Shown here: piece after piece, positions 26,778 to 64,000 of the stretch
Layout: every line of letters starts with the position of its first letter
Position numbering within the stretch: position 1 is the first letter of the stretch
Assembly: GCA_048500355.1 (NCBI GenBank)
Contig: JASNYD010000004.1
Span: forward strand, 64,001 to 128,000
From: Kofleriaceae bacterium
GTDB taxonomy: Bacteria; Myxococcota_A; Polyangia; Haliangiales; Haliangiaceae
Direction: 5' to 3'
DNA: 64,000 bases
Program-made: the position numbers and the translations under genes
Notes under the pieces: generated by a model
The model's database searches: none
The model's input: the letters and a program-made list of their open reading frames with translations, nothing else
What the model was told of the DNA's origin: nothing

Positions 26778-27970
<1,193 letters not shown>

Positions 27971-28039
27971 GACGTGACCGGGGCCGCGCCGTCGGTCTTC
28001 CTCGCACTTTCCGAGCAATTCCCCGGGCCTGGCGAGGCC

Positions 28040-29815: not shown

Positions 29816-31462
29816 ATGGGCCTCGACGACCCGGCGGGCGACGCGCGCGATCGCGTGCCGGCGCCCCTGCGCGACCTCCTCGCGGCCGAGGACCTCGACC
29901 CGCGCTTCCCGGCCGAGGTCGTGGCCGAGGCCGCCGCCCTGGTCGCGGCCCCGGGCCTCGACGATCCGGCCCTGGTCGACGAGGAGGACGTCCCCTACGT
30001 CACGGTCGACGGCGCCGGCACCCGCGACCTCGACCAGGCGCTCCACCTCGAGCGCGACGGCGACGGCTACCGCGTCCGCTACGCGATCGCCGACGCCGCC
30101 CACTACGTGCGCCCGGGCACCGCGCTGTTCGCCGAGGCGCTGCGCCGCGGCACCAGCTACTACCTGCCCGGCCTGTCGGTGCCGATGCTGCCGCGCTCGC
30201 TGTCCGAGGGCGCGGTGTCGCTCGCGCCCGGGGTGCCGCGACGCGCCGTGATCTTCGACCTGCGGCTCGCCGGCGACGGCGCGTGCCGCGCCGCCACGCT
30301 CCACCGCGCCCGCATCCGCAGCCGGGCCCAGCTCAGCTTCGACGAGGTCCAGGCCTTCCTCGACGCGCCGGCGACCTCGGCCCTGGCCGCCGCCGCCTTC
30401 GCACCGAGCCTCGCGCTCCTGCCGGTCATCGGCGAGCTGCGCCAGCAGGACGCCGCCGCCCGCCAGGTCGTGCGCTACCACCGCGAGGAGGTCCACGTCG
30501 GCATGGCGGGCGAGGCGTTCACGATCCTGGCTCGTGTCCGCCACCCGGTCGAGCGCCACAACGAGCAGCTCTCGCTCCTGTGCAACGCCGAGGGCGGACG
30601 GCTCCTGTGCGCGGCGGTGGGCGACGACACCTCGCGCGCCGCCCACGGCATCTACCGCGTCCACCCGGCGCCCCGGCCCGCGCGCCTGGCCGAGCTCGAG
30701 CGCCAGGTCGCGGAGCTCGTCGCGCTCCACCGCCTCGACGCCGCGCGCTGGGGCTGGCACCCCGACGCCTCGCTGGCCGAGTGGGTCGACGGCCTGCGCG
30801 GCCTCGACGGCGGCGACGACCGCCTGGGCCGCATCGTCCGCGCCGTCGAGCGCCAGGCGGTGATGGTCAACGTGCGCTCGGTGTTCAGCGCCGAGCCCGG
30901 CGAGCACTTCGGCGTCGGGGCCGAGCCCTACGCCCGGTTCTCGGCGCCGATGCGCGAGATCGTCGGCGTCTTCGTCCACAAGGAGGCGGTCGAGCTCCTC
31001 GGCCTGGCGCCCGCCGGCGCGGCCGCCGCCGACGCCGCGCTGCGCGATCGGGTCCTGGCCGCCGCCAACGCCGCGCGCGAGCGGCAGCGGCGCCTCACCG
31101 ACCTCACCAACCGCCGCGTGCTCGATCAGCTCTTCGCCCCCGACCTCGAGCTCCCCCGCGACCGCCGCCCCGCCCGCGCCGGCACGATCATGGGCGTCAC
31201 CGCGTCGAAGATCCACGTCACCCTCGACGAGCCGCCGATCGACGTCAAGCTCTACGTCGGCGACGCCGGGCGGGCGGTGGGCGGCGCCTGGCTGACGCTG
31301 TCGGCCGGCAAGGCCGCGCTGTGTGACGAGGACGGAGCGGCGCGCTTCGTCGTCGGCGATCCGGTGGCGCTGCGCGTCGCCGGCCGCGATCCGCGCCGCG
31401 ACCGCTGGGTGCTGGAGCCGGTCGGCAAGGTCAGGAAGCGGCGACCGGCGCCAGCATCGTGA
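29816..31462 (+). CDS. RNB-domain (RNase II/R-like) protein with non-canonical catalytic motifs
   Basis: VPYVTVDGAGTRDLDQALHLE...YRVRYAIADAAHYV matches the RNB motif I region, but reads DLDQA instead of DxDDA. Later EHFGVGAEPYARFSAPMREIVGV corresponds to HFGL...YTHFTSPIRRY with PMRE for PIRR. No obvious CSD/S1 domains. Confidence 0.7.
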   Translation: MGLDDPAGDARDRVPAPLRDLLAAEDLDPRFPAEVVAEAAALVAAPGLDDPALVDEEDVPYVTVDGAGTRDLDQALHLERDGDGYRVRYAIADAAHYVRPGTALFAEALRRGTSYYLPGLSVPMLPRSLSEGAVSLAPGVPRRAVIFDLRLAGDGACRAATLHRARIRSRAQLSFDEVQAFLDAPATSALAAAAFAPSLALLPVIGELRQQDAAARQVVRYHREEVHVGMAGEAFTILARVRHPVERHNEQLSLLCNAEGGRLLCAAVGDDTSRAAHGIYRVHPAPRPARLAELERQVAELVALHRLDAARWGWHPDASLAEWVDGLRGLDGGDDRLGRIVRAVERQAVMVNVRSVFSAEPGEHFGVGAEPYARFSAPMREIVGVFVHKEAVELLGLAPAGAAAADAALRDRVLAAANAARERQRRLTDLTNRRVLDQLFAPDLELPRDRRPARAGTIMGVTASKIHVTLDEPPIDVKLYVGDAGRAVGGAWLTLSAGKAALCDEDGAARFVVGDPVALRVAGRDPRRDRWVLEPVGKVRKRRPAPAS

Positions 31463-34400
31463 CCACGCGCGCCGGATCGCGCACGCCCTCGGCCGCCAGC
31501 GCCGCCGCCGCCGCCGCGCGCAGGGCGGCGCCCTCGTCGCCGCCCAGCAGCTCGCCCAGCCGCCAGCGCGCGGCGAGCTCGACCAGCGCCATGCGGGTGG
31601 CGGCGAAGCCGTCGACCGCGGCCCGGTAGTGGGCCCGGGCGCCGTCGAGGTCGCCGGCCAAGACCGCCAGCTCGGCGGCGACCAGCGCCGCCGCCCCCGG
31701 GTTGCCGCCGTCGGCGACGAGCTCGCGGCCGAGCGCGGCGGCGCGCCGGCGGTGCCGCGCCGCGTCCGCGCCGCCCGCGGCGGCGGCGCCGAGCACGGCG
31801 GCGGCCTCGACGTAGGCGCTGAACATCCGCACCGCGCGCACCCGGAAGATCAGGCCGCGGCGCAGCGCCCCGCGCTCGTCGGCGATCGCCGCCGCCGCCG
31901 CCGCGCAGTCGCCGCGGTAGATCGCCACCAGCGCGCGGGCCTGCAGGTGCTGCCAGTGCTGCAGCGTCACCCCTCGCCGCGACAGCCCGGCGGCGGCCCA
32001 CGTCAGCTCGGCGGCCGCGGCGTCCGGTCGATCGTCCACGAGCTGGACCACCGGGGTCAGCACGGTCCGGAGCTGGAGCGCGGCGTAGAGATCGTCGCGG
32101 CGGGTCGCCTCCTCGAGCGCGCGGGCCAGGCGACCGCGCAGCGCGACGAGCTGCCCGGTGTGCCACAGGCAGGTCAGCGACATGCGCTGGGCCGTGCCCA
32201 CCTCCCAGGCCGCGCCCACGCACTGGTCGCGCCAGATCCGCTCGGCGGCGTCGCAGCGGACCAGCGCCTCGTCCCACTGCCCGCACAGGAACGCGACCGT
32301 GCCGCGCGCCAGCTCGAGGTAACCGTGGACGGCCGGCTCGTCGACGCGCGCCGCCCACGTCGCGGCCTCGGCCAGGAGCGCGTGGGCGCGGCGGGCCGGC
32401 GGCCCGCCGATCGCGGCGCCGCCGGCGTCGAAGGTGAGGCCGAGCACGATGCGGCGCAGATCGCCGGTGTCGAGGGCGAGCCTCAGGTGGCGCGCCTGGA
32501 GCTCGGCGCCGCGGATCGGCGACACCATCCACGAGCCGACCGCGGCCGACCAGCAGCAGGCCATGCGTACGGCCTCGGTGGCGGTGGGCGCGCGCGTGGC
32601 CGGCGGGCGGCGACGTCGCCACCACAGGCGGGCGCGCTGCACCGCGAGCGCCGCCAGCGGCCAGCGGCGCGCGCCGAGCGCCGGCAGCCCGGCGGCGGCC
32701 AGGACCGCGTCCATCAGCTCGAGACCCTCGTCGACCCGGCCCGCGCGCAGGAGCTGCTCGGCGGCGCGGCGCCGCAGGTCCAGGGCCTCGTCGGCGACGC
32801 CGACGAGGTCGGCGGCCGCCGCGAAGGCCGCGCCGGCCTCGGCGCCGCGACCGGCCGCGGCGCACGCCGTCCCCAGCGCGGCGTGGAGCGCGGCGCGGCG
32901 CGCGGGCTCGCCCGGGCCGGTGGCCTCGGCCAGGGCCAGGGCCCGGCGGTAGAGGTCGGCGGCCCGCTCGAAGGCCAGGCGCTCGGTGGCCTGGCGGGCG
33001 GCGGCCTCGACGTACGCGATCGCGCGCGCGCCCTCGCCCGCCCCCTCGAGGTGGTCGGCGACGAGCTCGGGGCGGATCGACGCCAGCGGGTCGCGCTCGA
33101 GGGCGGCCGCCAGCGCGCGGTGCGCGTCGGCCCGCGCCGCGGCGCCCATCGCCCCGAGCACGGCGGCCCGCACGCGATCGTGGTAGGGCTCGACCGGATC
33201 GTCGGGGCGCGCGCCGTGGCTGCGCACGAGGTGGGCCGAGCGCAGCGCGCCCAGCGCCGCCCACCACGCCGCGCCGTCGAGCCCGGCGGCGGTCGCATGC
33301 AGCGCCTGCGGCAGCGGCGCCCCGGCCAGCGCCACCAGCCGGAGCAGGCGCGACGGCGCCGCCCCGACCGCGGTCAGGCGCGCGGCGATGGCGTCCTCGA
33401 GCCGCGGCGCCCCGCCGCCGGCGCCGCGCCAGCGCGCGGCGGCCAGCTCGGCGAGGTGCAGCGGGTGGCCGCCGGCCTCGTCGACGATCGCCGCGGCGTC
33501 GCCGCCGCCGGCGCCCTCGAGCAGCGCCCGGCCGAGCGCGGCGGCGTCGTCGCGGGCGAGCGGCCCGACGGCGAGCGTCTCGGCGGTCGCCGCCCACGCC
33601 GGATCGACCGCCGCGCCGTCGGGGGCGGTGGCGACCACCAGGAGGCCGCGCCGCGCCCGGGTGGCGACGTGGGCGAGGAGGGCCAGGCCGTCGCGATCGG
33701 CCCAGTGCACGTCGTCGATCGCGAGCACCAGGGGCGTCCGCGCCGCCAGGCGGTCGATGAGGTCGGCGAAGGCGTCGAACACCCGCGCCCGCCGCTCCAC
33801 CGGATCGCGCACCGGCGGGGCCTCGCGCGCCGCGCGCTCGAGCTCGCCGTGCCCGGCCAGCGCCGGCAGCGCCGCCGGCAGCAGCCCGACGTCAGGGCCG
33901 GCGAGGGCGGCCACGCGCGCGTCGCGGTCCTGGTCGAGGTGACGGGCCAGCCCCGCCGCCACGCCGTGCATGCCCTTGAACGGCACCGCGACCCGCTCGT
34001 AGCAGCGGTCGCGCAGGACCAGGGCGCCGGCGGCCTCGACCTCGTCGGCGAACGCCGCCACCAGCGCGCTCTTGCCGATGCCCGACGGGCCGCGCACCAG
34101 CACCGTCCGCGGCGCGGCGCGCGCCGCGGCCAGGCGCTCGACCAGCGCCGCGCGCTCGGCGACCCGACCGACGAAGCGCGGCATCGGCGGCGTCGGCGCC
34201 GTGACCGCGCCGATCACCTCCGCCACCCGGGCGCCGTCGGGGCGGCGGTCCGGATCGACCGCGAGCAGGGCGCGGGCCAGGTCGACGAGGTCGCGATCGA
34301 CCGCGGCCGGCAGGTCGGCCGGGACCGGCGGCGGGCCCCGCCGCTTGGCCGCGACGATCTCGGCCACCGGGCCGACGAACGGCAGCCGGCCGACCAGGGT

Positions 34401-35123
34401 CTCCCACAGCAGCGCGCCGAACGCGTACCAGTCGGCGGCGGGCCCGACGGCCACACCCGTCGCCTGCTCCGGCGCCATGTAGCCCAGCGTGCCGGCGCCG
34501 GCGCCGGCGCCGGCGCCGCGACCGCCCGCGTCCTGAGCCAGCCCGAAGTCGAGGAGCACGACGCGATCGCGATCGACCAGGACGTTGGACGGCTTGACGT
34601 CGCGGTGGACCTTGCCGGCGGCGTGCAGGAAGGCCAGGCCGGTGGCGAGCTGGGCGGCCGCGGCCCGCGCCCGCGCCGGATCGAGGGCGCCGCCCGGCCG
34701 GGCGTAGCCGGTGAAGTCGGGCCCGTCGACGAGCTCCATCGTGAAGAACCAGCGCCCGCCGTCCTCGGTGAGCTCGCCGAGCGCGACCAGGTTGGGGTGG
34801 GAGAGATCGTGGAGGGTGACGAACTCGCCGCGCAGGCGCTCGAGCGCGTCGAGGGTGGCGGCGGCCAGGGTCTTGAGGGCGACCTCGCCGCCGCGCAGGT
34901 GATCGCGGGCGGCGTAGACCACGCCCATGCCGCCCTGGCCGAGGGTGCGCACCAGCTCGAAGCGACCGCCGCCGAGGCGGGTCCCGGGCGCCAGCGGCGG
35001 GGCCGCCACCAGCGGCGCGGCGTCGGTGACGCGCGCCGCCTCGCGCAAGAAGGAGTCGTAGCCGTCGCCGGTGTCGGCGAGCGCGCTGGCGCCGGTCTCG
35101 TCGTCGGACCCGGGACGGGTCAT
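31431..35123 (-). CDS. Ser/Thr protein kinase fused to AAA/STAND NTPase and TPR-like repeats
   Basis: Start MTRPGSDDE. Kinase motifs GQGGMGVVYAARD, VALKTL, HRDVKPSNVLV, DFG, TLGYMAPE. P-loop VLVRGPSGIGKSAL. Long helical C-terminal region. Confidence 0.9.
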   Translation of the reverse strand: MTRPGSDDETGASALADTGDGYDSFLREAARVTDAAPLVAAPPLAPGTRLGGGRFELVRTLGQGGMGVVYAARDHLRGGEVALKTLAAATLDALERLRGEFVTLHDLSHPNLVALGELTEDGGRWFFTMELVDGPDFTGYARPGGALDPARARAAAAQLATGLAFLHAAGKVHRDVKPSNVLVDRDRVVLLDFGLAQDAGGRGAGAGAGAGTLGYMAPEQATGVAVGPAADWYAFGALLWETLVGRLPFVGPVAEIVAAKRRGPPPVPADLPAAVDRDLVDLARALLAVDPDRRPDGARVAEVIGAVTAPTPPMPRFVGRVAERAALVERLAAARAAPRTVLVRGPSGIGKSALVAAFADEVEAAGALVLRDRCYERVAVPFKGMHGVAAGLARHLDQDRDARVAALAGPDVGLLPAALPALAGHGELERAAREAPPVRDPVERRARVFDAFADLIDRLAARTPLVLAIDDVHWADRDGLALLAHVATRARRGLLVVATAPDGAAVDPAWAATAETLAVGPLARDDAAALGRALLEGAGGGDAAAIVDEAGGHPLHLAELAAARWRGAGGGAPRLEDAIAARLTAVGAAPSRLLRLVALAGAPLPQALHATAAGLDGAAWWAALGALRSAHLVRSHGARPDDPVEPYHDRVRAAVLGAMGAAARADAHRALAAALERDPLASIRPELVADHLEGAGEGARAIAYVEAAARQATERLAFERAADLYRRALALAEATGPGEPARRAALHAALGTACAAAGRGAEAGAAFAAAADLVGVADEALDLRRRAAEQLLRAGRVDEGLELMDAVLAAAGLPALGARRWPLAALAVQRARLWWRRRRPPATRAPTATEAVRMACCWSAAVGSWMVSPIRGAELQARHLRLALDTGDLRRIVLGLTFDAGGAAIGGPPARRAHALLAEAATWAARVDEPAVHGYLELARGTVAFLCGQWDEALVRCDAAERIWRDQCVGAAWEVGTAQRMSLTCLWHTGQLVALRGRLARALEEATRRDDLYAALQLRTVLTPVVQLVDDRPDAAAAELTWAAAGLSRRGVTLQHWQHLQARALVAIYRGDCAAAAAAIADERGALRRGLIFRVRAVRMFSAYVEAAAVLGAAAAGGADAARHRRRAAALGRELVADGGNPGAAALVAAELAVLAGDLDGARAHYRAAVDGFAATRMALVELAARWRLGELLGGDEGAALRAAAAAALAAEGVRDPARVVTMLAPVAAS

Positions 35124-35180
35124 CGCACCCGATTGTACGCGCCCTGGCACCGGCGGCGCCGATCGTGGTCAGATCCGGCC

Positions 35181-35777
35181 ATGGACGACGAGGCCGAGCT
35201 CCGCGCCGCCTGCGAGGCCAGGAGCTTCGACCAGGCGACCACGCTCGCCCTCGAGCGCTACGGCCCGGAGATCCTCGGCCTGCTCGCCGCCCGCCTGCGC
35301 TCCGACGGCGACGCCGCCGAGGTCTTCTCGATCTTCGCCGAGGACCTGTGGCGCGGCCTGCCCGGCTTCGCCTGGCGCTGCTCGCTGCGGGCGTGGGCCC
35401 ACCGCGTCGCCCGCAACGCCGCCAACCGCTACGCCGTGGCCGGCGCCCGCCGCGCCGCGCGCAACCAGCCGCTGGGCGGCGAGCTGGTCGAGGCCGTCGC
35501 CGACCGCGTCAAGTCGACCACGCTGGTCTACCTGAAGAGCGAGGTGAAGTCCGAGATCCGGCGCCTGCGCGACGAGCTGTCGCCGGAGGACCAGCTCATC
35601 CTGGTGCTGCGCGTCGACAAGGGCCTGGAGTGGCGCGACGTCGCCATGGCGCTGGCCGACGAGGATCTGGACGAGGCCGCCCTGGTCCGCGAGGCCGCCC
35701 GCGTCCGCAAGCGCCTGCAGCTCGCCACCGCCCGTCTGCGCGAGCTGGCCGCCGAGCGCGGGCTGCTGGCGCGGTGA
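35181..35777 (+). CDS. ECF-type RNA polymerase sigma factor (sigma-70 family), divergent from kinase gene
   Basis: Region 2 (IFAEDLWRGLPGFAWRCSLRAWAHRVARNAA). Region 4 (LILVLRVDKGLEWRDVAMAL...VRKRLQLATARLRE). Only the last 198 aa of the long antisense ORF 31323..35777 are real. Confidence 0.8.
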   Translation: MDDEAELRAACEARSFDQATTLALERYGPEILGLLAARLRSDGDAAEVFSIFAEDLWRGLPGFAWRCSLRAWAHRVARNAANRYAVAGARRAARNQPLGGELVEAVADRVKSTTLVYLKSEVKSEIRRLRDELSPEDQLILVLRVDKGLEWRDVAMALADEDLDEAALVREAARVRKRLQLATARLRELAAERGLLAR

Positions 35778-36279: not shown

Positions 36280-36951
36280 ATGCCTCTCACCGTCGGCCAG
36301 CCCGCGCCCAGCTTCACGCTGCCGTCCTCGGACGGCGGCACGTTCGCCCTCGAGGATCTGCACGGCACGATCGTCGTCGTGTACTTCTACCCGCGCGACA
36401 ACACCCCCGGCTGCACGATCGAGGCGCAGGACTTCCGCGACGCGGTCCCGGCCCTCGAGCGGCTGGGCGCGATCGTCGTGGGGATCAGCAAGGACTCGAT
36501 CGCATCGCACTGCAAGTTCCGCGACCGGTACGGCCTCAGCTTCCCGCTGCTCAGCGACGCCGACGGCGCCGTGCTCGAGGCGTACGGGGCGTGGGGCGAG
36601 AAGCTCATGTACGGCAAGCCGGTGACCGGCGTGATCCGCTCGACCGTGATCGTGGGCCGCGACGGCGCCGTGCTCCGCCACTGGCCGAAGGTGAGCGTCA
36701 AGGGCCACGCCGCCGAGGTGGTGGCCGCCATCGCCGAGCTCACCGGCCAGGCTGCGCCGCGGCTGGCGGGCGGCACCGGGGCGTCACCGGCGGCGAAGAA
36801 GCCCGCCGCGAAGAAGCCCGCCGCGAAGAAGCCCGCCGCGAAGAAGCCCGCCGCGAAGAAGCCCGCCGCGAAGAAGCCCGCCGCGAAGAAGCCCGCCGCG
36901 AAGAAGCCCGCCGCGAAGAAGCCCGCCGCGAAGAAGCCGGCCCGGCGCTGA
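36280..36951 (+). CDS. bcp: Peroxiredoxin Bcp (thiol peroxidase) with C-terminal histone-H1-like (AKKPA)x10 tail
   Basis: PRDNTPGCTIEAQDF (peroxidatic Cys in the PxxxTxxC context), Bcp-type. C-terminus AAKKPAAKKPAAKKPAAKKPAAKKPAAKKPAAKKPAAKKPAAKKPAAKKPARR is encoded by a 15-bp in-frame repeat. Confidence 0.85.
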   Translation: MPLTVGQPAPSFTLPSSDGGTFALEDLHGTIVVVYFYPRDNTPGCTIEAQDFRDAVPALERLGAIVVGISKDSIASHCKFRDRYGLSFPLLSDADGAVLEAYGAWGEKLMYGKPVTGVIRSTVIVGRDGAVLRHWPKVSVKGHAAEVVAAIAELTGQAAPRLAGGTGASPAAKKPAAKKPAAKKPAAKKPAAKKPAAKKPAAKKPAAKKPAAKKPAAKKPARR

Positions 36952-37073
36952 CACGGCCGAGCGGGCGAGGGGATCGCACGCTCCTGAACGGCGCCGCGAG
37001 CGCCCGACCTCACGCGCGCGGCGGCCACGGCGTGTCGGCCTTCGACACGCCCTCGCTGGCGCTCGGGCGGCTC

Positions 37074-37887
37074 AGGCCGACCGGAGAGATGGGGCTCGCC
37101 GTTGGTTCCCGCGCTCGCCGACCGCGGTCGGTGAAGGGCTCAGGCCGACCGGAGAGATGGAGCTCGCCGTTGGTTCCCGCGCTCGCCGACCGCGGTCGGT
37201 GAAGGGCTCAGGCCGACCGGAGAGAGGGGCTCGCCGTTGGTTCCCGCGCTCGCCGACCGCGGTCGGTGAAGGGCTCAGGCCGACCGGAGAGATGGGGCTC
37301 GCCGTTGGTTCCCGCGCTCGCCGACCGCGGTCGGTGAAGAGCTCAGGCCGACCGGAGAGATGGGGCTCGCCGTTGGTTCCCGCGCTCGCCGACCGCGGTC
37401 GGTGAAGAGCTCAGGCCGACCGGAGAGATGGGGCTCGCCGTTCGGTTCCCGCGCTCGCCGTCCGCGGTCGGTGAAGGGCTCAGGCCGACCGGAGAGAGGG
37501 GCTCGCCGTTGGTTCCCGCGCTCGCCGACCGCGGTCGGTGAAGGGCTCAGGCCGACCGGAGAGAGGGGGCTCGCCGTTCGGTTCCCGCACTCGCCGACCG
37601 CGGTCGGTGAAGGGCTCAGGCCGACCGGAGAGATGGGGCTCGCCGTTGGTTCCCGCGCTCGCCGACCGCGGTCGGTGAAGAGCTCAGGCCGACCGGAGAG
37701 ATGGGGCTCGCCGTTCGGTTCCCGCGCTCGCCGTCCGCGGTCGGTGAAGGGCTCAGGCCGACCGGAGAGAGGGGGCTCGCCGTTCGGTTCCCGCACTCGC
37801 CGACCGCGGTCGGTGAAGAGCTCAGGCCGACCGGAGAGAGGGGCTCGCCGTTCGGTTCCCGCGCTCGCCGACCGCGGTCGGTGAAGA
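37074..37887. repeat. Tandem repeat array 1: ~12 copies of a 68-bp unit (GGCCGACCGGAGAGATGGGGCTCGCCGTTGGTTCCCGCGCTCGCCGACCGCGGTCGGTGAAGGGCTCA)
   Basis: Period 68 bp (occasionally 67/69) measured between successive CCGGAGAG occurrences. Each unit carries the 14-bp palindrome CCGACCGCGGTCGG. Copies differ by point variants (atggggctc / atggagctc / agaggggctc; gaagggctc / gaagagctc; gaccgcgg / gtccgcgg). ORFs on both strands here are repeat artefacts. Confidence 0.85.
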
Positions 37888-38072
37888 AGCCCGCCGCGAA
37901 GAAGCCCGCCGCGAAGAAGCCCGCCGCGAAGAAGCCGGCCCGGCGCTGACACGGCCGAGCGGGCGAGGGGATCGCACGCTCCTGAACGGCGCCGCGAGCG
38001 CCCGACCTCACGCGCGCGGCGGCCACGGCGTGTCGGCCTTCGACACGCCCTCGCTGGCGCTCGGGCGGCTCA
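37886..38072. repeat. Segmental duplicate of bcp 3' end: (AKKPA)x3 + stop + 120-bp downstream spacer
   Basis: gaagaagcccgccgcg x3 ...ccggcccggcgctgacacggccgagcgggcgaggggatcgcacgctcctgaacggc...ctcgggcggctc is near-identical to 36905-37073. Confidence 0.8.
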
Positions 38073-38640
38073 GGCCGACCGGAGAGATGGGGCTCGCCGT
38101 TGGTTCCCGCGCTCGCCGACCGCGGTCGGTGAAGGGCTCAGGCCGACCGGAGAGATGGAGCTCGCCGTTGGTTCCCGCGCTCGCCGACCGCGGTCGGTGA
38201 AGGGCTCAGGCCGACCGGAGAGAGGGGGCTCGCCGTTGGTTCCCGCGCTCGCCGACCGCGGTCGGTGAAGGGCTCAGGCCGACCGGAGAGATGGGGCTCG
38301 CCGTTGGTTCCCGCGCTCGCCGACCGCGGTCGGTGAAGAGCTCAGGCCGACCGGAGAGATGGGGCTCGCCGTTCGGTTCCCGCGCTCGCCGTCCGCGGTC
38401 GGTGAAGGGCTCAGGCCGACCGGAGAGAGGGGGCTCGCCGTTCGGTTCCCGCACTCGCCGACCGCGGTCGGTGAAGAGCTCAGGCCGACCGGAGAGAGGG
38501 GGCTCGCCGTTCGGTTCCCGCACTCGCCGTCCGCGGTCGGTGAAGTGCTCAGGCCGACCGGAGGGGCGTGGCCGACCGGAGGGGCGTGGCCGACCGGAGG
38601 GGCGCGGCCGACCGGAGCGATTGGCTCGCCGCGCGGTTGC
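38073..38640. repeat. Tandem repeat array 2: ~7 copies of the same 68-bp unit, ending in a degenerate tail with 3 copies of GGCCGACCGGAGGGGCGT
   Basis: First three units reproduce the order of variants in array 1 (atggggctc, atggagctc, agagggggctc). This is consistent with a tandem segmental duplication of a [bcp tail + spacer + array] block. Confidence 0.8.
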
Positions 38641-38645
38641 CGCGG

Positions 38646-39326
38646 TCAGTCGCTGGCGATCCGGAAGCCGACGCCGCGCACGGTCTGGATGACGTCGGGG
38701 CGGGGCAGCTTGCGGCGGAGGCGGAGGATGACGTTGTCGACCGCGCGCTCGCTGATGTCGAAGTTGCCGCTGCCCCAGGCCGCGTCGAGCAGCTCGCCGC
38801 GCGACATGGCCCGCCCTTGCGCGCGCATCAGCGTGCGCACCACCGATAGCTCGGTGGCGGTGAGCGCCACGCTCCGGCCGTCGATCCACAGCTCGTGGCC
38901 GTCGGTGTCGAGGGTCATGGCGCCGAACCGAACCCGCCCGGCGCGGCCGCGACCGGCCCAGTGGACGCGGCGGTGGACGGCGCGGATGCGCGCCGCCAGC
39001 TCGCGCGCCGAGGGCGGACCGACGACCGCGTCGTCGAAGCCGGCGGCGAGGGCGCGCTCGGCGAGGCCGCGATCGGTGGCGCCGGTGAGCGCGACCAGCC
39101 CGGGCCGTGGCTGGCGCCGCTCGGCCCAGGCCGCGGCCCGCTCGAACAGCCCGGCCGACTCGCGCTCGCCCAGGCACAGGAGCACGACCGGCCGGTCGAG
39201 AGCGTCGCCGTCGAACAGCGCCGGCGAGGCGACCGAGACCTCGAGCACCTCGCGCCGGAGCTCCTGGACGAGCCCCACCACCGACGCGGCGCCGTCGACC
39301 GCGACGATGACCGCGCCCACCGCCAT
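38646..39326 (-). CDS. Atypical OmpR-family winged-helix regulator with pseudo-receiver domain (Cys at phospho-acceptor position)
   Basis: C-terminal LTATELSVVRTLMRAQGRAMSRGELLDAAWGSGNFDISERAVDNVILRLRRKL...VQTVRGVGFRI is a classic OmpR/PhoB wHTH. Receiver-like N-domain has VAVDGAAS (one acidic residue instead of DD). It has VVLLCLGE where the phospho-Asp LxxLDLxLP is expected, and GPPSAREL where the conserved Lys is expected. Confidence 0.7.
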   Translation of the reverse strand: MAVGAVIVAVDGAASVVGLVQELRREVLEVSVASPALFDGDALDRPVVLLCLGERESAGLFERAAAWAERRQPRPGLVALTGATDRGLAERALAAGFDDAVVGPPSARELAARIRAVHRRVHWAGRGRAGRVRFGAMTLDTDGHELWIDGRSVALTATELSVVRTLMRAQGRAMSRGELLDAAWGSGNFDISERAVDNVILRLRRKLPRPDVIQTVRGVGFRIASD

Positions 39327-39470: not shown

Positions 39471-42935
<3,465 letters not shown>

Positions 42936-43034: not shown

Positions 43035-44339
43035 TCACCCGCAGAAGCGTCGCAGCCGGGCCTCCGACTCGGCCCGCAGCGCCAGGTGCTCCTCGTCGTA
43101 CCGGCGCCGCTCGGCCAGCCGGTGCAGGTTGGCGATGATGGTGTCGGTGCCGATGAGCGTGAGCACGAGGACGTTGGCGACGAAGGCCATGATCGACGTC
43201 GCGATCGACACCGCGCTGAAGTCGAGCCGGGTGACGAAGTCGAAGACGCCGAGCAGCATCACCCCGCCCGAGACCGCGAGCAGCCCGATGTAGGCCATCC
43301 AGTGCCGCGAGATGCGGCGCCGGGCGTCGTCGCGCGACAGCGGCATGACGAGCGTCCGCCCCGACAGCGCGATGAAGATCTGCGCGCCCATCACGCCCAC
43401 CATGCCGCCGACGAAGTAGAGGCTGGCGGTGATCTGGTACGGCAGGAGGATGATGATGTAGGCGAACAGGGCGTAGAGCGGCGCCGCCAGGATCATGAGA
43501 TAGCCGGGACCGGCGGTGCCCGGGAACAGGAGCTTGCTGACGATCGACGCCCGGATGAGCCCGGGCATGAGCGAGATGGCCTTGGGCGCGAGCACCAGCA
43601 TGGCCTTGACTCCGAAGGCCAGGCCCACCGCCATGTTGATGTGCTCGCGCTTGGCCGAAAAGTGGAGCTGGCCGAGCTTGGCCGCGTCGCGCGCCGCCTT
43701 GTACGACTCGAAGGTCTCCTGGAACGGGTACAGGTAGACGATGAACGGCCCGATGAAGTAGATGACCCAGGCCAGGAGCAGGATGCGGCGCTGCGACGCC
43801 CACTGGGTCCAGCGGCCGAGCATCCAGAACGCGGTCAGGCAGAACAGGGCCTCGGCGATGGCTGGGATGAGCAGCGCGGCGCGCGCGCCGTCGGGGACCG
43901 GCGGCCCCTCGAAGGCCTCGACGAAGCGCAGGAAGGTGAGCGGCACGAACGCGAGCGCGACGATGAGCAGGACCGAGCGCCGCCAGGCCAGGAAGGCCTG
44001 GTGCTCGGGATCGGTGATGTGGGCGGCGCTGGCGGCCAGCGCCCGTCGCTCGACCACCAGCACCTCGCTCGGCTTGATGGCGAGGCGGAAGGCGCGCTTG
44101 AGCGAGACCAGGAGGAAGCTGCCGGTCAGCGACTGGACGAGCTGCGACTCCGGCGCCGGCCGCTCGTAGGTGGCGACCGCCTCGGAGTGCGCCCACGCCA
44201 CCGGCTGGGGCGCGGCCGGCGGGCGCGGCCCCGGCGGCGCGGCGCCCGGCGGTACGGCGCCGGGCGGCGGCTCGGGTGGCGAACCGGGCGGCGCGGGCGG
44301 ACGATCGTCGTCGGTCACGGCGGGTCGGTGATACTCCAA
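43035..44339 (-). CDS. Hypothetical polytopic membrane protein inserted between imuB and dnaE2
   Basis: ~10 predicted TM helices. Pro-rich N-terminus. Somewhat more AT-rich codon choices than neighbours. No recognised motif. Confidence 0.5.
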   Translation of the reverse strand: MEYHRPAVTDDDRPPAPPGSPPEPPPGAVPPGAAPPGPRPPAAPQPVAWAHSEAVATYERPAPESQLVQSLTGSFLLVSLKRAFRLAIKPSEVLVVERRALAASAAHITDPEHQAFLAWRRSVLLIVALAFVPLTFLRFVEAFEGPPVPDGARAALLIPAIAEALFCLTAFWMLGRWTQWASQRRILLLAWVIYFIGPFIVYLYPFQETFESYKAARDAAKLGQLHFSAKREHINMAVGLAFGVKAMLVLAPKAISLMPGLIRASIVSKLLFPGTAGPGYLMILAAPLYALFAYIIILLPYQITASLYFVGGMVGVMGAQIFIALSGRTLVMPLSRDDARRRISRHWMAYIGLLAVSGGVMLLGVFDFVTRLDFSAVSIATSIMAFVANVLVLTLIGTDTIIANLHRLAERRRYDEEHLALRAESEARLRRFCG

Positions 44340-44429
44340 CCCGGCGGTCGGCGCACCGGTCGGGGAGCGCCGTCATCAACGGCGGCCGCCGCCTCGACAT
44401 TCCGGGGCGCGCCAGGGAATGATCGCGAC

Positions 44430-63225: not shown

Positions 63226-63339
63226 CGCCGGGCGGATCGCGGCCCGCCGGCCGCAGGCGCGGCGGCGAGCCGGCCGCGGGCGCGGAACGCCGCCCCCGCC
63301 CTGCCCGGCACCAGATCCGCTGTGGTCGGCGCTCGATGT

Positions 63340-63610
63340 CGGCCTGAGCCGCCCGAGCGCCGTCGGAGATTGCGGGAAACGATCGGCGAGCCACTCTCTC
63401 CGGCCGGCCTGAGCCGCCGAGCGCGGTCGGAGATTGCGGGAAACGATCGGCGAGCCACTCTCTCCGGTCGGCCTGAGCCGCCCGAGCGCTAGCGAGGGCG
63501 TGTCGAAGGCCGACGAGCCGCGGCCCCGCGCGAGCGCTGTCCGGCGCTTGCCAGCGCCGTTCGTCAGGAGCCGTCCGAGCGCCAGCGAGGCGTGTCGAAG
63601 GCCCGTCCAC
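63340..63610. repeat. Inverted, diverged copy of the 37-38 kb repeat family (2-3 units of ~65 bp plus spacer homologue)
   Basis: TGAGCCGCCgagcgcggtcgGAGATTGCGGGAAACGATCGGCGAGCCACTCTCTCCGGTCGGCC is a reverse-complement relative of the 68-bp unit. The adjacent cgctagcgagggcgtgtcgaaggccgac...cgccgttcgtcaggagc matches the reverse complement of the bcp-downstream spacer. Confidence 0.5.
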
Positions 63611-63649
63611 CCTCGCTCGCCACCGCAGGGCGCCGCGGCCCCGGCGCCG

Positions 63650-64000
63650 CTACCGCCGCGACTGCCGCAGCCGCCACAGCACGGCCTGCAGCCGGTCCGC
63701 GAGCGCGAGCACCTCCGCGAGGTCCGCGGCGTCGACGTGGCCCCAGGCGGCGGCGATCCGCGCGTGTGTCACCGCCTCGGCGGCCTCCGCCGACGCGATG
63801 CGGAACGCGTGCAGCCGGTCGCCGCCGCTGCGCCGGCCGCCCTCGGCGGTGTTGGCGGCGGCGCTCGTCGCGGCGCGGCGCATCTGGCCGGCGAGGTCCT
63901 TGTCCCGCGGCGCGACCCGCTCGACGACGGGCCGGATGGCGGCGATGAGCTCCATGGCGATCCGGGCGACGAAACATGCTGGGTCTCCTGGTCGGGTGGT
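63650..64000 (-). CDS. Four-helix-bundle protein (23S rRNA intervening-sequence protein family), 5' end beyond window
   Basis: QMRRAATSAAANTAEG matches the family motif RRAA.SI..NIAEG. The frame stays open to the window edge. Confidence 0.6.
   Translation of the reverse strand, partial: TTRPGDPACFVARIAMELIAAIRPVVERVAPRDKDLAGQMRRAATSAAANTAEGGRRSGGDRLHAFRIASAEAAEAVTHARIAAAWGHVDAADLAEVLALADRLQAVLWRLRQSRR

Follow-up and report, generated by a model that had tools for sequence, protein, structure and literature searches.

A 68-bp tandem repeat behind bcp in a Kofleriaceae bacterium is probably part of a lineage-specific interspersed mosaic repeat family

Bacterial interspersed mosaic elements (BIMEs) alternate the orientation of their REP sequences, which are imperfect palindromes, and REPINs are inverted pairs. 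NIMEs combine different repeat units, each bounded by the short conserved repeat dRS3, which is inverted, ~20 bp long and a target of phages and recombinases. The MIRUs of Mycobacterium tuberculosis, as Supply and colleagues reportedly described in 1997, lie inside operons, co-oriented with the genes, and their small open reading frames (ORFs) overlap the flanking stop and start codons. As MIRU/VNTR (variable-number tandem repeat) loci they are direct tandem repeats of 46–101 bp, present at tens of loci and variable in copy number among strains (PMC3914561). NIMEs form composite intergenic mosaics of 70–200 bp, and roles in attenuation and mRNA stabilization have been proposed for REP and BIME (PMC3049150). 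The BOX elements of Streptococcus pneumoniae are built as boxA-boxBn-boxC, with a 5′ module, a variable tandem internal module and a 3′ piece, and about a hundred intergenic copies are over-represented between convergent genes (PMC3049150). Where BOX elements expand to long forms, spurious ORFs arise on both strands; BOX is suspected of mobility by an unknown mechanism, and the variants boxD, boxE and boxF occur in S. suis (PMC3049150). The stretch studied here, called the window, is 64,000 nt of a Kofleriaceae bacterium (assembly GCA_048500355.1, contig JASNYD010000004.1, positions 64,001 to 128,000 of the forward strand) with a GC content of ~75%, in which two arrays of a 68-bp unit fill the space between the peroxiredoxin gene bcp and a convergent response-regulator-like gene.

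The 68-bp units probably belong, as U modules, to a non-coding interspersed mosaic repeat that is specific to the lineage and that expanded, and was once duplicated, at bcp. The family is apparently undescribed, no description of it having been found in the literature, and is of the BOX, MIRU, NIME and BIME kind, a familiar kind of bacterial repeat. The distance from the bcp stop to the regulator stop is 1694 nt, which contains both arrays and an 18-bp repeat. Tandem Repeats Finder (TRF), profile searches and motif coordinates resolved the locus, in which each array is preceded by a second module, L, as follows.

36280–36951 (+): bcp coding sequence (peroxiredoxin), 223 aa, with a histone-H1-like AKKPA tail (ORF; Pfam AhpC-TSA 4e-36, Redoxin).
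36793–36942 (+): 15-bp repeat x 10.0 (GCGAAGAAGCCCGCC) encoding the (AKKPA)n tail, homogeneous here (TRF, 99% matches).
36885–37882 (+): copy 1 of a duplicated 998-bp block, comprising bcp tail, stop, spacer, L and array (sequence identity).
36952–36979 (+): locus-specific spacer of 28 nt from the bcp stop to the element; the array-less allele keeps the same spacer, with one single-nucleotide difference.
36980–37068 (+): module L, copy 1, with head GCTCCTGAACGG, body and FD box CCTTCGACACGCC (37039–37051) (nhmmer L model 36987–37068).
37069–37886 (+): array 1, 12 U modules of 67–69 nt each (TRF: 68 bp x 12.0, 96% matches).
37883–37977 (+): duplicated bcp tail (15 bp x 3.9, TRF 37883–37940), stop (37947–37949) and 28-nt spacer (exact identity to 36885–36979).
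37978–38066 (+): module L, copy 2 (nhmmer; motif coordinates).
38067–38563 (+): array 2, 7 U modules and a partial eighth (TRF: 68 bp x 7.3, 96% matches).
38552–38617 (+): 18-bp sub-repeat GGCCGACCGGAGGGGCGT x 3.7, derived from the U head (TRF).
38606–38648 (+): terminal partial U (GGCCGACCGGAGCGATTGGCTCGCCGCGCGGTTGCCGCGGTCA) reaching into the regulator stop codon (38646–38648) (profile search and motif coordinates).
38646–39326 (−): OmpR-type response-regulator-like gene, 226 aa, convergent with bcp (Pfam Trans_reg_C 1.6e-18).

The TRF copy numbers bear out the ~12 + 7 copies of a 68-bp unit counted in an earlier reading made without database searches (the sequence-only reading). The 20-mer GGCTCAGGCCGACCGGAGAG from the head of the unit occurred 22 times in the window at ≤3 mismatches, compared to 0.05 expected. 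The perfect palindrome CCGACCGCGGTCGG was present in 15 units here, and its one-base variant CCGTCCGCGGTCGG in four. With variants coded by letter, the unit order is a b c a a′ d c e a d e f in array 1 and a b c′ a d e g in array 2. The earlier reading had also described a 120-bp spacer behind bcp, of which only the 28 nt at 36952–36979 proved specific to the locus. The remaining 89 nt (36980–37068) belong to module L, because BLAST matches from many sites of another genome, the metagenome-assembled genome (MAG) PRO4, start at window position 36986.

Dispersal of the family was revealed by scanning 185,579 species-representative genomes for the exact 19-mer GCTCAGGCCGACCGGAGAG. This gave 111 stretches, 100 of them from the single MAG “uncultured delta proteobacterium PRO4” and one from the co-assembled bin PLA2; the remaining ten were single matches, and none of them fits the U or L hidden Markov model. 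The window aligned with PRO4 contigs at 97.6–99.2% identity over 12 kb, and at up to 99.6% in aligned flanks, so that both belong to the same species. Iterated nhmmer searches returned 244 U matches and 164 L matches (82-nt leader model) in 112 sites, which places short non-coding modules at many dispersed intergenic sites of one genome. The sequence-only reading was incomplete in describing the array at its own locus only, the 19-mer scan and nhmmer showing the bcp array to be one site among many; the genome-wide search for the unit that it had proposed succeeded, yielding a second site in the window (63338–63640) and ~100 in PRO4.

63338–63640 (−): second element, built of an incomplete FD box, L, 2.3 U (64-nt units) and a terminal motif; it has the head motif and the “spacer” sequence known from bcp (TRF 63340–63489; nhmmer).

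This element begins ~10 nt past the stop of a gene for a 23S rRNA intervening-sequence (IVS) protein (PF05635; 63650–63973, −). One PRO4 locus (L109) aligned at 78% to 63417–63877 and may represent a paralogous IVS-protein gene with its element.

The sites follow a common grammar. Architectures ranged from L-U and L-Un (n = 1–6; 12 and 7 at bcp) to L-L-Un, L-U-L-U and longer mosaics, so that the number of internal modules is variable, as in interspersed mosaic repeats. Typical sites carry 1–3 U; the 12 + 7 units at bcp form the largest array seen, the maximum in PRO4 being 6, but short reads cannot resolve long arrays. All modules start with a variant of one ~15-nt motif, GCTC[AC][GT]G.CGA.CGG. 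The canonical element consists of an L module (head GCTCCTGACGAACGG and a body of ~82 nt), n U modules of 68 nt headed by GCTCAGGCCGACCGG, and a terminal motif, GCTCAGGGCGA(A/G)CGG, at the element end. Common boundary motifs and a terminal GCTCAGGGCGAACGG were seen across sites. All modules were in direct orientation at most sites, including both window sites, and the few “mixed” clusters resemble adjacent elements. Identity among U modules was 94.7% inside single sites and 89.9% across sites, and L copies were ~90% identical; the within-site similarity is consistent with local amplification or homogenization.

Extra modules in PRO4 flanks comprised (CCCGAG)n-like hexamer runs, the “FD” hairpin box CCTTCGAC and the inverted repeat GTGTGAAGGAATCACAC; loci with such modules include L046, L097, L030, L025, L064, L106 and L100. 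The box CCCCTTCGACTCCGCCCCTTCGGGGCTTC, with a GCCCC/GGGGC stem and a TTCG loop, was observed beside L/U modules. The terminal GCTCAGGGCGAACGG and CCTTCGAC boxes may resemble the “PFDKLRANG”-type repeats of many GC-rich genomes, a likeness that is a lead only. In JGI metagenomes, a 23-mer spanning the unit junction was found only in the assemblies of one project, JAANM[T,U,X,Y], and blastn of a plasmid collection gave no match. A protein-level search with an array ORF recovered four spurious ORFs, one of them from PRO4. Among the others, P0003 (MCL4227691.1, “Myxococcales bacterium”) translates an L-U-L-U-terminus element, and P0001 (808-kb contig) and P0004 (665-kb contig) translate diverged arrays with estimated units of ~86 nt and ~63 nt and the same LRPTGE head. 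These related array translations in other Myxococcales assemblies suggest that the family may be part of a wider superfamily of motif-headed tandem modules in Myxococcales.

The elements are biased toward the 3′ side of genes and toward the space between convergent genes, as expected of interspersed mosaic repeats. Callable flanks were gene 3′ ends in 68 of 88 cases (p=1.4e-7), and convergent gene pairs flanked 10 of the 17 fully callable sites (p=0.003). At 12 of the 28 sites with a clear convergent gene, the TGA of that gene was the TCA inside the terminal GCTCAG motif, and no ORF read into an element. The sites that share a stop codon in this way are the following.

Stop-sharing sites (U ends): L009, L010, L018, L022, L036, L044, L051, L053, L057, L078, L079, L083.

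Stop codons in this genome stand most often in the context CTGAGC, which accounts for 12% of genes at a distance from elements and 32% of those near them, so that the boundary motif offers ready microhomology with gene ends.

In this assembly the two arrays at bcp are related by a 998-bp tandem duplication that carried along the bcp tail, stop, spacer and array, because the 345 nt at 36885–37229 recur without a difference at 37883–38227, 998 bp further on. The exact stretch is made up of 67 nt of bcp including the stop, a 117-nt spacer, units 1 and 2, and the start of unit 3, and the left breakpoint lies inside the 15-bp AKKPA-coding repeat. The sequence-only reading had proposed just such a duplication of a ~1-kb block of gene tail, spacer and array, and its supporting details were also upheld: the copied bcp tail, stop and spacer in front of array 2 (37883–37977) are exact, as is the L copy, and the first units of array 2 repeat the order of variants in array 1 (a b c...). 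Removal of five whole units from array 1 yields array 2, apart from 3 mismatches over 663 nt. It is the copied bcp tail that proves the duplication; a second L alone would not, since L-U-L-U is common in the family. The junction 37882/37883 reads GGTCGGT/GAAGAAGCCC, and the unit end (GGTGAAG, then A/G) has only GAAG(A) in common with the bcp repeat (GCGAAGAAG).

String diagnostic of the duplication junction: GGTCGGTGAAGAAGCCCGCC.

The locus bears the signature of a microhomology-mediated tandem duplication that was probably followed by loss or gain of units. The 998-bp block may have been duplicated by template switching or illegitimate recombination across the 4–5-nt microhomology GAAG[A], after which copy 2 would have lost five units or copy 1 gained them. 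In general, whole units may be gained and lost when replication slips or when units and motifs recombine unequally with one another.

Variation among close strains, which lay beyond what the single sequence read earlier could show, extends to absence of the whole array. A look-up of the exact ATG-start regulator protein found it in seven other assemblies. Six of these run into the right end of array 2 (98.8–100% identity) and then break; L112, an independent k141 assembly, contains 257 nt of that end at 100%, and L115 (ERZ27309508) has 2.7 copies of the 18-bp sub-repeat compared to 3.7 here, with one substitution in the last unit. The seventh, L118, is 99.7% identical over 5.4 kb and has 75 nt between the two stop codons. 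A 75-nt spacer was also present in L119 (57-kb contig), L120 (PRO4) and L122, found via the neighboring sigma-factor gene. This short allele consists of the same 28-nt spacer, the L-head motif and one degenerate unit, and its pieces together make up a 9-bp hairpin, CCGAACGGC/GCCGTTCGG, located between the bcp and regulator stops. The array-less strains encode a 238-aa Bcp with heterogeneous AKKPA/AKQPA codons (L119 7100–7816, L120 3437–4153, L122 2826–3542), which suggests that the AKKPA tail is itself a VNTR and that the ten homogeneous repeats here represent a recent re-expansion. For the Bcp tail of the window, an HC2-like match was below the Pfam cutoff. Identity between the PRO4 contig L120 and the window was 99.6% on the side of the regulator and dnaE2 but only 97.7% on the bcp side; the sequence suggests that a recombination breakpoint may lie at or near the repeat locus.

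A second polymorphism was found at a third site of the window.

27958–27971 (−): solo boundary-like motif CTCAGGCCAGGCGG overlapping the TGA of a gene that ends at 27970.

In PRO4 (L083 1–254, L013 1–203) a multi-module element (L L U .. L U U U, − strand), which a contig break interrupts, directly follows that TGA. The empty allele at 27958–27980 is carried by the window and seven other assemblies, with only GGCCTGAG, ACGTGACC and GGGGCC in succession. Presence or absence of an element thus differs at two of the three sites of the 64-kb window between strains that are 98–99% identical.

Several points weigh against the reading of the units as a mosaic repeat expanded and duplicated at bcp. 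The flank statistics rest on crude coding-strand calls based on GC content at third codon positions. Some unit variants, and with them the copy numbers, are separated by G-run length alone. There was no clean target-site duplication at the single filled/empty pair, at 27971 (GGGCACGG / GGTGACGG vs GGTCACGT). The direction of change at bcp has evidence both ways: a gain is favored because more diverged lineages hold the short allele, and an old element with subsequent loss is favored because the units at bcp stand ~10% apart from those of all other sampled sites. A role as terminator or stabilizer would be pure analogy, with neither a canonical terminator nor covariation to speak for it. Finally, array 1, the left L and the junction are without independent confirmation, and the copy numbers come from one assembly whose technology is unknown.

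The last point bears on an assembly artefact, in which the arrays exist and the 12 + 7 copy numbers and/or the internal copy of the bcp tail stem from mis-assembly or a chimeric read, e.g., from concatenated haplotypes. Neither array 1 nor the junction is bridged by an independent contig, short-read assemblies all break within the arrays or the AKKPA repeat, several unit variants differ by one G more or less in a G-run, which is typical of long-read error, and length variants do exist in the population. However, the overlap at the junction is just 4–5 nt, whereas overlap assemblers need long overlaps, and a junction with so little in common must be present in a read. Nor are the copies identical loops, since they differ by whole-unit indels and three substitutions in a consistent variant order, and the right 257 nt of array 2 recur base for base in the independent L112. 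Flanks are 100% identical over 4.1 and 7.7 kb. An artefact of this kind is consequently regarded as unlikely. Three further searches were uninformative rather than contrary: a 25-mer across the junction had no match in JGI metagenomes, an exact look-up of the chimeric 82-aa junction ORF had none, and no contig among all retrieved loci contained the junction when searched with junction probes.

New sites may have arisen where the boundary motif, a match to the commonest stop context C-TGA-GC, served for recombination. The element DNA would be selfish or near-neutral filler at gene 3′ ends, at most transcribed as the 3′ untranslated region (UTR) of convergent genes. A bolder proposal, which is given only a slim chance, is that GCTC[AC][GT]G.CGA.CGG is recognized, or used for crossover, by an undescribed site-directed mobilization process that places L and U exactly at the TGA of convergent genes. 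If true, the family would form a new class of element in Myxococcota, anchored at stop codons and shuffling its modules, instead of passive slippage-prone filler, and the arrays could serve as fast-evolving 3′-end regulators.

Precise abutment to stop codons, which hints at a site-specific process, also enters into the idea of a DNA-binding array, in which 14-bp palindromes every 68 bp serve as sites for a dimeric protein (a nucleoid protein, gyrase as at BIMEs, the adjacent regulator, or a recombinase that moves the modules). The abutment is, however, partly explained by the match of the motif to the commonest stop context. No part of U is more conserved than the perfect 14-bp palindrome, but it is broken in 4 of the 19 units here; a boundary motif stands at each module edge, yet no protein partner was identified, and a family spread over the genome would not have the neighboring regulator as its specific partner. 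Such an array therefore appears quite improbable.

Selection for RNA structure found little place in the folding data. Single-sequence folds of both strands had z-scores of −1.8 and −0.65, and RNAalifold applied to 134 distinct units gave a consensus fold of −8 kcal/mol whose 8 pairs are all invariant, with 0 compensatory changes. When 5′ and 3′ parts were swapped between units, native units folded no better than the chimeras (z +1.7/+1.7). No compensatory pairs were found in L (alifold, 69 distinct copies). By inspection, the L head (ACGAACGGCG) and the U middle (CGCCGTTCGT) complement each other over 10 nt, and consensus folding gave no supported long-range helix and no covariation. Rfam had 0 matches at gathering threshold in the window and 0 at E≤1 in 36900–38700, and a consensus scan for sigma-70 promoters and intrinsic terminators found none. 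There is, in sum, no support for a selected RNA structure in U or L, and of the “hairpin-containing” repeat in the sequence-only reading the 14-nt palindrome stood, while a hairpin beyond it found no support in the folds, the 0 compensatory pairs and the swap test. A functional structured RNA, whether tandem small RNA, 3′-UTR regulatory array or multi-hairpin terminator/stabilizer under structural selection, is hence very improbable, even with a palindrome CCGACCGCGGTCGG that is invariant or nearly so in 134 distinct units, a position at convergent-gene 3′ ends that suits terminators or stabilizers, the 9-bp hairpin retained in the array-less allele, and the precedents of BOX and REP (PMC3049150); a U-tract terminator is lacking and close strains dispense with the array. 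The GC-rich palindrome and the complementarity of L head and U middle might nonetheless impede read-through or 3′ exonucleases, as REP and BOX do.

A coding sequence (a repeat protein or Bcp extension) or degenerate CRISPR array can be dismissed, as the sequence-only reading had done: long ORFs do cross the arrays on both strands (174, 225 and 554 aa) and gene callers annotated such ORFs elsewhere (MCL4227691.1), but the frame changes from each unit to the next, their lengths being 67, 68 and 69 nt, two array ORFs compared with Pfam gave no match, ORFs of such length are common in 75% GC DNA, the stop of bcp itself precedes the element as in array-less strains, and the 68-nt units abut head to tail without spacers, whereas a CRISPR has repeats of 23–55 nt with unique spacers of similar length between them. 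Iteron and retron readings were rejected on anatomy. A miniature inverted-repeat transposable element does not fit either, the ends being direct copies of one motif with no clean target-site duplication at the one pair compared, and the alternating or inverted arrangement of REP/BIME and REPIN is not seen, the modules being direct at most sites.

The neighborhood contains further genes on either side of the arrays. The regulator gene adjoins dnaE2 (39471–42935, −), which encodes an error-prone polymerase with PHP/DNA_pol3_alpha domains, and the next minus-strand ORF, 43035–44372, could be a candidate member of an imuA-imuB-dnaE2-type cassette. Upstream of bcp, a 1484-aa ORF (31323–35777, +) overlaps almost fully with a 1239-aa Ser/Thr kinase-AAA_16 gene (31431–35150, −). 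This plus-strand ORF is an artefact of stop-poor 80% GC DNA, except for its last 198 codons (35181–35777), a real ECF-type sigma factor gene matched in 115 collection blocks.

As it stands, the family represents no new kind of biology, and its interest lies elsewhere. The modules explain the shattered short-read assemblies of this organism, many PRO4 contigs ending in them, and they offer a VNTR-like marker set for strain typing of an uncultured Myxococcales lineage that is common in public runs. The window documents unusually fast turnover, two of its three sites differing from a strain 98–99% identical, and provides a clean case of a microhomology-mediated tandem duplication that carried along the 3′ end of a gene. 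Abutment to stop codons and a common boundary motif give a handle on how mosaic repeats spread, a question that is open also for BOX, NIME and MIRU.

Compared with described systems, the family resembles REP/BIME in being extragenic, high-copy and built as mosaics of few motifs with a GC-rich palindromic core and a preference for 3′ ends, but unlike in REP/BIME and REPIN-RAYT its modules are direct and its units about twice as long. The bounding of NIME units by dRS3 recalls the boundary motif that delimits L, U and other modules here, although the present motif is direct and no recombinase is linked to it. As in MIRU-VNTR, units of 64–69 bp occur at ~100 loci, and strains differ in copy number by whole units and by 18-bp repeats. 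The sites here, however, lie mainly between convergent genes and not inside operons, a distinct leader module is present, the units are not multiples of 3, and the overlap with stop codons is on the opposite strand, unlike that of MIRU. Sequence homology to BOX is implausible because of composition, 75% GC being set apart from the AT-rich BOX. The two also differ in build, since all modules here start with the same ~15-nt direct motif, L repeats and alternates with U, the arrays reach 12 units, and a terminal stem of the A/C type, by which the end modules of BOX pair into a stem-loop that leaves the internal module free, would be hypothetical here. What BOX and this family have in common is a modular A-Bn-C-like build, a copy number of ~100, a bias toward convergent genes, expansion, and the spurious ORFs that result.

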